Source: a virus | Taxonomy: Duplodnaviria; Heunggongvirae; Uroviricota; Caudoviricetes | Direction: 5' to 3' (one strand) | DNA length: 29,412 bases | Virus record (IMG/VR): IMGVR_UViG_2617270990_000002 | In this document: one piece after another, positions 24,001-27,000 of the stretch | Numbering within the stretch: the first letter of the stretch is position 1 | Layout: each line of letters starts with the position of its first letter | Program-made: the position numbers

Positions 24001-27000
24001 ACACGCATGAATTTTTTAACAGCCTCCGAAATCGGCATGCGACGTGGTGGGGAAAATCCTGCCGATATGTCCCTTCCCAAATTTCGGGCTGATGAAAAAC
24101 CCATTATTCCTCCTAGAGACTCTCTCCTTCCTCATCAGGAATTAATTCAGCAGCACAAGCCTCGTAGGATTTTTCCTGAAGAGTGTATCGCAGGTCATCA
24201 ATGGCCTGCTGTACAACGCCGACGGCCTGAGGAGTCAGGGCGCAATCGCGTTCAAGAACATCCGGAATTGTCTCCAGAACCTGGACGACAGCCTTTCTCA
24301 TGGACGAATAGACGATGACTACTTCATCAACGGGGATGAGTTTTCGCTGCTCCTTTTCCAGCTTGATCCTTTCATTTTCAGATTGGTACCAGTCCTTTCT
24401 CTCTTTCGGCTCCATACGGGATGGATCATGAACAGAGTCTGCTGCCTCATGCTTCACACTAAACAGGGCTGGCCCGACATGCTGCAGGGCGTAAACGGGG
24501 TTCCCCCTGATAGTCGCAGCCACAGGAGTGTTGGCCGCGAGGAGCCGTTTTTTTACTGTGTCCCGGTGAAGCCCAAAGGCCTCAGCGATTTTAAAAACAC
24601 TCCAGTAATAAGCATCACCGATCCCGCTCACATTTGACATAAGCAACTCCATCTGGCAGGTGAAAATCATGTTTATTTATATATTTCAATTAATTGCAAA
24701 CTGGTCTAATGACAGGGAGAAAAAAATATTGTACAGGTGAAAAGAGAAATAACTTTTAATTATCAATAAATTACCAAACATGCTGCCGCCGCCATGGAAA
24801 TGCAAAAACTAGCCTTTTTCCGCGACGCTCCCGCCCCGTGGCAGGGACCCCCACTGGGAGGACCCGACAGCCTGACAACCGTGACGAGCATCTGAAACAG
24901 AGCTTTACATAATGGCATGGGGATAATTCAGAAGGACATCACAGCATGCCCACACAAATTAGTGTGAGTGTCCTGTTTCTTACTACGCGCAGGACTGACG
25001 AGCATGAGGGGAAAATACGAGAACCGAAATGCCTTATCTTCAGAAATGCAGCCGGCATCCGAACTGGACGATATTGTAAATTCACCTAAATACGAGGCAT
25101 TGCTGTAGTTGAATTGCATTGCTGTATTAGCCTGACAGTGACAGAATACGATATTGACTCTGTCACTTGTGAAATGGTCAGAATGGTTAGCAGTTATGGT
25201 GATCAGTCAACCACCAGGGAATAATCCTTCGTATTCTTATCGTGCTTTACTAACGCGGCCTCAATTGCCCTGAATGCTTCCAGAGACACTTGATGTTCTA
25301 TACATGCAATTACAACATCCGGGTAACCCATCGAAATGGTGCTATTAAGCATAGTTTTTACACGAACCTGCTCCTGGGAGGGGGCATCAGTGTATTGTTC
25401 TTTATGCATTTTGTCGCTCCATGCGTTTGCTCTTCACTTACGGCTAAAAATATAACGTCAAATCACTCAGCATGAAAGAGTTAAAGATTCAGCGCGTTTC
25501 CCTTACATAATCTGTCGTTTGTATTCTCTTCAGGCATACCGGAAAGACTAGGTATTGTCACACAACCAATACCATCGACAATCGAGATTTATACCTATTC
25601 GGTAATGTTTAAATATAACAAAACCCCGTAAAAACGAGGTTTATGGGTAATTTGTATTGTTGAATAGCATCTGATGAGAAATTGATGCTAATACTAAACA
25701 GACTAGATTAAATCAATCTTGATATCATAGCTTTCAAGACCAGTCATTTTTTCCCGTGCAGTAAACTGGATACTGGTAACTTCTTTCCCGGTCTTTTTCT
25801 TAAGCTCAATGATTTTTTTGTTATATATTCAGAAATATCTGCTTCTGTTTTTGTTTTTAACTCTTCAATGTTCATCATTTCCTCTTTTAGTCTGTTATGA
25901 CTTTCCTGGTACACAGTAGTGTCAATTATATGGAGCAAACGTATAAAAGATAAGATGAAACATCGCAATAATCAACATACGACGGTCTAAATTTCACACA
26001 AACAGATAAAGATGATTATCATTTATTATCAATGCATTAGAATCAAATCAATTCAAGAGTCTCATTGCTGCTTCCAGAATTTCTTCTGAAGTTACATGTC
26101 GATCCGCTGCTACATAAATGACTTTATGATCTCCGGTCAGAGATGGAAACCCTGCAGCCATTACAGTGAGGTGTGTTGTTTCGCCATTTGGATATTCACG
26201 CATGATGGTGTTAACTCCGGTCATCACTGGCACTACCATTGCTGGTTCAGAGTTAAAAAAAACTATTATTTTTTTCATAATGTTACCGTAATATGTGAGT
26301 ATCCATCGACTAGACACTAAGCAAAAAAGCTCCCGAAGGGGCTTTTTTTTAAGATTTAACCAAATGAAATAAAAGGATTTATTTCAGGTCATGTCCACTT
26401 ACCGACCACATCTATTCAAAAGCCCCGCAATGCGGGGCTTTTATCATATAGTCAAACTTAACTGATCGCGTCCATAGTGCGAAGCGGGAAAGACACCTGC
26501 GGGAATAAAGTCAGGCGCTAATTTATCGCGCCGCTCACGCTTGGTGACAATTTTTTCAACACTGTTAAGCGTTGTGAATGACAAGCCGCATTCCATATTC
26601 TGGCACTGATGGTATTGGCGAATCGTTACTTCACTAAGAGGCTTACTGGTGCGAGTGCGGGCCGTAGCGCCGCAGTGTGGGCATTTGAACATAATGGTGA
26701 CTCCCCTGGGGAGTTGAACTCATCACCATTCTATTCAGTTTCTGCGATCCAGTCAGATATTTTTGCTTCAAAGTTAAGCTGTGTTGTGAATCCATTACTA
26801 TCAACATCATGCTGTACCTTGCTGATTATCCAGTCCTGGGCGTCAATATCAGCTTTAAAACCGGTTACCGTTGCGTGCATTTCCGGGTACAACTCCGCGC
26901 GCCCGCGCGCCAGGGTGATCGAAAACTCCGCCGCGCCGCGCTGTAACTGCTGCCACTTTGCCGCCGCTGCGCGCCTGGCGGCTTCTTCGTTCTGGAAGGT

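Follow-up and report, generated by a model that had tools for sequence, protein, structure and literature searches.

The stretch of DNA analysed here (the window) is the 29,412-nucleotide (nt) virus record IMGVR_UViG_2617270990_000002 of IMG/VR, assigned to the Caudoviricetes, and its element of interest is a gnsB gene whose reading frame is interrupted at a run of seven adenines (A7). Translation of the window places gnsB on the minus strand, running from 25875 to 25703, with two parts that lie in different frames and are joined at the A7 run. The locus comprises the following features:

25703-25875, minus strand: gnsB pseudogene, 173 nt, compared with 174 nt (57 codons plus stop) in the intact allele
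25813-25819, minus strand: A7 run (T7 on the plus strand), apparent site of a 1-bp deletion from an ancestral A8
25744-25875, minus strand: frame-0 open reading frame (ORF) with a 43-amino-acid product, consisting of Gns residues 1-21 and a basic out-of-frame tail of 22 amino acids
25703-25813, minus strand: -1 frame segment of 36 codons, Gns residues 22-57 plus the stop TAG
25881-25884, minus strand: Shine-Dalgarno-like GAGG, read from the sequence, 5 nt upstream of the ATG at 25875
25621-25642, minus strand: intrinsic-terminator-like hairpin and T-run downstream of gnsB

Frame 0 encodes MNIEELKTKTEADISEYITKK, continues into the out-of-frame tail SLSLRKRPGKKLPVSSLLHGKK and ends at a TGA stop at 25744-25746. 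The -1 frame, read from 25813 (the last A of the run), encodes IIELKKKTGKEVTSIQFTAREKMTGLESYDIKIDLI up to the stop at 25703-25705 and is identical to the same segment of the intact allele WP_001019207.1. Across the run, the frame-0 codons are ACA AAA AAA TCA, so that the run constitutes an in-frame A_AAA_AAA heptamer of the X_XXY_YYZ type. Either a -1 slip at this heptamer or the addition of one A gives the same 57-amino-acid protein as the A8 allele, with T-K-K-I-I across the site. An earlier reading of the window, made from the sequence alone (the sequence-only reading), had placed the split exactly at the A7, proposed that one extra A would restore an uninterrupted 57-codon gene, and noted that the run is formally a -1 slippery heptamer; the translations of both frames and the identity of the repaired gene with the A8 allele bear out all of this. 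A second in-frame ATG of gnsB is present at 25878.

The frame-0 stop overlaps the ATG of Met44 in the -1 frame at 25744-25747, giving ATGA, a classic stop/start overlap at which termination-reinitiation could in principle yield a 14-amino-acid C-terminal peptide (MTGLESYDIKIDLI). Because Met44 is a conserved Gns residue, the overlap is probably coincidental. A 74-amino-acid ORF with a TTG start (25744-25968) was rejected as an artefact of upstream extension, its exact sequence being absent from the protein collection.

The repaired 58-amino-acid sequence matches the Pfam family GnsAB_toxin (PF08178) with 114.4 bits (cut-off 27) and covers profile positions 1-54 of 54, which confirms the earlier assignment to the GnsB family; the frame-0 product alone scores 45 bits and covers only positions 1-32. 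The repaired protein also aligns with the GnsA structure 4XO2_A (E = 7.9e-20, residues 1-56 on 1-56) and is approximately 93% identical to GnsB of Escherichia coli K-12. These matches indicate a real homology that is split at the mutated site, and not a chance pattern. A functional gene of the GnsA/GnsB family would have a single uninterrupted ORF of approximately 57 codons, while frame 0 ends here after 43 codons, and the locus is a pseudogene member of the family. An NCBIfam search returned no model for GnsB, YnfN or the neighbouring 68-amino-acid protein. Both Pfam and the Prokaryotic Genome Annotation Pipeline (PGAP) name the family a toxin, and ymcE-gnsA is among the type II toxin-antitoxin systems listed in PMC8484670, with the function entry "Inhibitor of phospholipid synthesis". 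When gnsA or gnsB is overexpressed, the content of unsaturated fatty acids rises and fabA6 and secG-null are suppressed (Sugai 2001, cited in bioRxiv 10.1101/2024.03.27.586906).

Tract lengths were counted in a set of 5,426 complete E. coli genomes with queries of 77-79 nt, for which any mismatch gives less than 99% identity, so that the top band consists of exact matches; IMG/VR was scanned with a pattern tolerant of tract length, which gave 120 loci. In the closest genome, NZ_CP042899, gnsB is intact (WP_001019207.1) and its run is A8. An alignment of the window with this genome over 6,747 bases shows 73 substitutions and a single gap, which falls in the gnsB A run. With the exact flanks of the window-type allele, 549 complete E. 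coli genomes carry the single-frame A8, 27 carry A7 and one carries A9 (n = 577). Two further genomes, STEC1589 and STEC1590, align over 79 nt with one mismatch, and STEC1590 was confirmed as A9. The K-12-type gnsB likewise has A8 (ACA AAA AAA ATT), and A7 occurs in 41 of approximately 1,500 complete E. coli genomes with that allele. Of the roughly 2,130 complete genomes with a gnsB gene, approximately 3% thus have A7. The prophage contigs of IMG/VR, an unbiased sample, give a similar picture (A8 in 117 of 120, again in a single frame, A7 in 2 and A9 in 1). At the level of species, gns occupies a single frame in 15 of 16 representatives (E. coli, E. ruysiae, Shigella flexneri and many Citrobacter); the tract in these is A8 or, in some Citrobacter, an in-frame A7 (ACT AAA AAA ATA) or a run interrupted by AAG. 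Seven sequenced lambdoid phages carry ynfN-gnsB, identifying gnsB as a phage moron, and the two that were inspected, 2H10 and Tritos, have an intact 174-nt gnsB with a csp gene upstream. The two-frame layout is conserved in no lineage or species sampled. The comparison with gns loci of related prophages, which the sequence-only reading had proposed as a check, finds an intact A8 gene in the great majority, and these alignments indicate that A8 with an intact gene is the normal, ancestral state.

The 16th representative, E. coli ECGI0523 (CP178306.1, L165), has a K-12-type gnsB that keeps A8 and is broken elsewhere, by a 1-bp deletion that turns CTTAAG into CTAAG, together with further changes; gnsB is thus also lost by routes outside the A run. 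Several Citrobacter gns genes (L155, L156, L158-L160, L162 and L164) have a second A8 run 10 nt downstream of the first, within CTC AAA AAA AAG ACA (Leu-Lys-Lys-Lys-Thr), and the lysine-rich motif TKKI(x)ELKKKT repeatedly creates long A runs at these Citrobacter loci. One contig binned as Veillonella parvula (JAGZPX010000007.1, L153) carries a K-12-type E. coli gnsB, identical in protein and in the nucleotides of the tract region, and is most likely a binning contaminant.

When 620 nt of flanking sequence are compared, the A7 allele falls on 9 distinct haplotypes. A8 members are present on 4 of these as well, which points to several independent and recent changes from A8 to A7. One haplotype group is uniformly A7 and comprises five isolates from different laboratories and hosts (L002, L006, L008, L140 and L145). 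The exact 43-amino-acid truncated protein is present in 659 contigs of a public protein collection (927 index blocks), some of them from sequencing-run assemblies in Logan and from a metagenome assembly in ENA. Since A7 is shared by a whole haplotype group and by Logan and ENA assemblies, the allele is real and heritable, and is neither a random base-calling error nor a fast switch. All 11 A7 loci sampled carry the PGAP label "GnsA/GnsB family addiction module toxin, frameshifted". RefSeq already annotates this allele as a frameshifted pseudogene.

The window's own haplotype includes 8 A8 twins and no other A7, which means that the A7 of the window is private, whether as a recent mutation or as an error. 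If it is an error of sequencing or assembly, the strain would truly have A8 and an intact gnsB, one homopolymer base having been dropped in base-calling or in the consensus. Under-calling A8 as A7 is a typical error of long-read and 454/Ion-type sequencing; the flanking haplotype is otherwise exclusively A8 (the 8 twins and NZ_CP042899), and the 451-nt region has no 100% match among the complete E. coli genomes. However, the 6,747 bases aligned with the closest relative contain no other indel, and the long phage ORFs of the window are uninterrupted, which speaks against an error-prone assembly. In addition, A7 is real elsewhere, in haplotype groups, in the 659 contigs and in the Logan and ENA assemblies, so that a true mutation here has a prior probability of approximately 3%, which is not negligible. 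We therefore regard an error in the window as unlikely. The sequence-only reading had named homopolymer sequencing error as the trivial alternative, which holds as a possibility for the window but cannot account for the allele in general, inherited as it is in haplotype groups and present in many independent assemblies.

The sequence-only reading had also raised the idea that the split might be a programmed or phase-variable shift rather than decay. In the first case, the A7 allele would express full-length GnsB at a set low level by -1 ribosomal frameshifting or transcriptional slippage, as a "savior indel plus compensatory frameshifting". The in-frame slippery heptamer (ACA AAA AAA TCA), the fact that a -1 slip gives exactly the wild-type protein and the intact downstream frame all speak for this, and A_AAA_AAA is used by some insertion sequence (IS) elements (PMC4066793). 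The concept of a savior indel accompanied by compensatory frameshifting at a low level is itself established, for the herpesvirus thymidine kinase (PMC5009743). The search for stimulators, however, came out negative. The 73 nt downstream of the run have a minimum free energy of -6.4 kcal/mol, compared with a mean of -10.7 kcal/mol for shuffled sequences (z = +1.79), and a fold at least as stable is reached by 194 of 200 shuffles; there is no stimulatory structure in this segment. By inspection, the 20 nt upstream (GATATTTCTGAATATATAAC) contain no G-rich element and thus no Shine-Dalgarno-like stimulator of the dnaX/IS911 type. Rfam (at the gathering threshold) and a tRNA scan detected no RNA genes in the whole window. 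The split arrangement, moreover, is not maintained in any lineage or species sampled, and the intactness of the downstream frame is explained by youth, the flanks being identical to those of the A8 twins.

Published reporter data put the yield of such a site low. A_AA.A_AA.A is among the motifs that give more than 0.10% frameshifting without stimulators, over a background of 0.055%, and the best unstimulated motifs reach about 10 times background (Sharma et al. 2014, PMC4066793), so that unstimulated efficiency amounts to only a few tenths of a percent. Efficient slippage of bacterial RNA polymerase is reported for runs of 9 (PMC5009743). Neither gnsA nor gnsB nor ynfN is mentioned in two supplements of Sharma et al. 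2014 (PMC4066793). With no stimulators, an unconserved layout and A7 alleles that arose as scattered, recent and independent events, we consider programmed or exploited frameshifting extremely improbable.

To assess how unusual the length variation of the gnsB run is, the homopolymer runs of the upstream neighbour ynfN serve as internal controls:

26048-26278, minus strand: ynfN, upstream neighbour of gnsB, intact, 76 amino acids
26269-26275: A7 run of ynfN, internal control for homopolymer instability
26255-26262: T8 run of ynfN, internal control for homopolymer instability

The 5' end of ynfN reads ATG-A7-TAATAG-T8. Across 112 E. coli prophage loci, the T8 run was T8 in 96, T7 in 15 and T9 in 1, and the A7 run was A7 in 108 and A8 in 4; the A5 and A6 runs of gnsB showed no length variation in 139 loci. 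Length polymorphism scales with run length, as slipped-strand mispairing predicts, and the gnsB A run is not a special site. In K-12, ynfN is itself annotated as "frameshifted".

These data bear directly on phase variation, in which the A8 run, as a contingency tract, would turn GnsB (putatively a toxin or a modulator of membrane lipids) on and off reversibly within the population. Consistent with a switch, A7, A8 and A9 all occur, on and off lengths are found among otherwise identical sequences (A7 together with A8 on 4 identical 620-nt haplotypes), A8 is found in several Citrobacter species as well as in the two E. coli gnsB alleles, and the partner gene ynfN also has variable runs. However, only about 3% of genomes are in an off state, and the uniform A7 of the five unrelated isolates suggests stable inheritance over rapid switching. 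The tract itself is not conserved, since in some Citrobacter it is interrupted by AAG or is shorter while staying in frame. An A:T run of 8 nt is also short for a contingency locus in a repair-proficient enterobacterium. Tract-length variation simply scales with run length in the module: the T8 and A7 runs of ynfN vary as much as the gnsB run or more, and gnsB displays neither instability beyond that of comparable runs nor selective upkeep. Phase variation is accordingly a quite improbable account of the split. In a combined version, the A and T runs of ynfN-gnsB would form a low-frequency reversible switch of a small toxin-like membrane-lipid modulator, with an A7 off state that is slightly leaky through unstimulated -1 slippage, as a bacterial counterpart of the savior-indel arrangement. 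This is compatible with A7, A8 and A9 on identical haplotypes and with the wild-type -1 product, but nothing positively supports it, and we think it very improbable.

A scenario based on toxin-antitoxin logic, in which loss of the antitoxin selects for inactivation of the toxin, was considered and rejected: the window has an intact ynfN, which occupies the position of ymcE, and a broken ynfN coexists with an intact gnsB in many genomes.

In the most probable explanation, which we hold with good confidence, the native A8 run of gnsB underwent an ordinary slipped-strand deletion of 1 bp; this left a young pseudogene, one of many independent occurrences at this hot spot in E. coli. In this explanation, gnsB is a 57-codon accessory gene (moron) of Qin-like lambdoid prophages, from whose A8 run (ACA AAA AAA ATC, Thr-Lys-Lys-Ile) one A:T pair was presumably lost by slipped-strand mispairing in replication. 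The deletion would shift the frame after codon 21, giving a 43-amino-acid product that lacks the conserved C-terminal 36 residues, and gnsB would be functionally off. The lesion is likely young, because the downstream frame is still identical to that of the intact allele. Spontaneous -1 slippage by the ribosome or RNA polymerase may still produce traces of full-length GnsB, which the published reporter data for unstimulated motifs would put in the order of 0.1-0.5%; such leakiness would be incidental and not a designed signal.

Several points weigh against this explanation. Within the sample, no other member of the window's haplotype has A7, and the A7 of the window could be a one-base assembly error. 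The functional loss of the 43-amino-acid product is a prediction from the loss of 63% of the 57-amino-acid domain. Finally, there is a strong deletion bias, with 68 A7 against 1-3 A9, which could reflect selection for a leaky state that is correctable by a -1 slip; this idea is countered by the T8 control of ynfN, which shares the bias (15 T7 against 1 T9).

The surroundings of the locus are those of a rearranged prophage, with the following further features:

1763-2293, minus strand: Mu-like Gam
3646-4587, minus strand: Mu-like MuB
4661-6748, minus strand: Mu-like MuA
7166-7711, plus strand: unannotated ORF of 181 amino acids beside the Mu-like genes
7945-9684, minus strand: lambda gpJ-like tail-tip ORF of only 579 amino acids, adjoining the Mu-like genes
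26444-26692, minus strand: P2-like ogr
26731-27978, minus strand: P2-like gpD
28430-29380, plus strand: DDE_Tnp_1 transposase (IS)

Leftwards of approximately 26345, the window is a Qin-like lambdoid prophage that includes the terminase, portal, capsid and tail genes and is 99% identical to many E. coli prophages. Genes 1763-9684 look like a Mu-type phage inserted in gene J of the lambdoid prophage, the ends being approximate. The usual gene order in relatives is cspI - ymcF - (ynfR) - ynfN - gnsB - 68-amino-acid hypothetical protein - DUF1441 small terminase - large terminase. In the window, Qin-like homology extends as far as a terminator-like GCCCCTTCGGGAGC-T8 at approximately 26345, immediately upstream of ynfN. 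Beyond this point, P2-like ogr and gpD take the place of the cspI-ymcF segment, and the DDE transposase comes after them. This junction of Qin-like and P2-like DNA is present in 0 of the 5,426 complete E. coli genomes, and it is absent from the 10 places listed with the exact 43-amino-acid protein. The host prophage is visibly degraded, as seen from the Mu-like insertion, the truncated gpJ and the P2-like segment with an IS, and a broken accessory gene fits this state.

The split as such carries little biological weight, as homopolymer frameshifts in prophage accessory genes are routine. Its use is in the interpretation of similar loci: the A8 run of gnsB and the A7 and T8 runs of ynfN are recurrent indel hot spots, at which length differences should not be taken as phylogenetic signal or as recoding without read-level support. 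A slippery heptamer made by a 1-bp deletion in a lysine-rich stretch is, likewise, a common false positive of scans for programmed frameshifts.

Compared with known systems, the gnsB site resembles the frameshift sites of dnaX and of IS1, IS3 and IS911 (A_AAA_AAG or A_AAA_AAA) in having an in-frame X_XXY_YYZ heptamer of Lys codons with a functional continuation in the -1 frame. It differs from them in the lack of a stem-loop, a pseudoknot or an upstream Shine-Dalgarno-like stimulator, in a layout that is not conserved among homologues, and in the origin of the heptamer, which arose by a one-base deletion from a normal ORF. With contingency loci and the G-run of the herpesvirus thymidine kinase (PMC5009743), gnsB shares a length polymorphism in a coding homopolymer with both on and off alleles, and correction by low-level slippage, as in the thymidine kinase, is mechanistically possible. 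The differences are that the gnsB tract is short, off alleles are rare, the group of five isolates is uniformly A7 and neighbouring runs behave alike.

The closer relatives are other gns genes. The paralogue gnsA, with structures 4XO1 and 4XO2, belongs to the family whose model the repaired protein matches from end to end. The gnsB (ydfY) of the K-12 Qin prophage has the same position in ynfN-gnsB, lies in a prophage of the same Qin-like kind and has A8; it differs from the gene in the window, where the run is A7, the ORF is split and only residues 1-21 are in frame, and where the cspI-ymcF part of the module has given way to P2-like DNA. Further close counterparts are the A7 gnsB genes that PGAP labels "frameshifted" in complete E. 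coli genomes such as NZ_CP019267, NZ_AP024205 and NZ_CP041433. Although these lie on other flanking haplotypes, and the haplotype of the window is otherwise A8 only, they share with it the identical 77 nt, the same 43-amino-acid product and the same type of prophage context.

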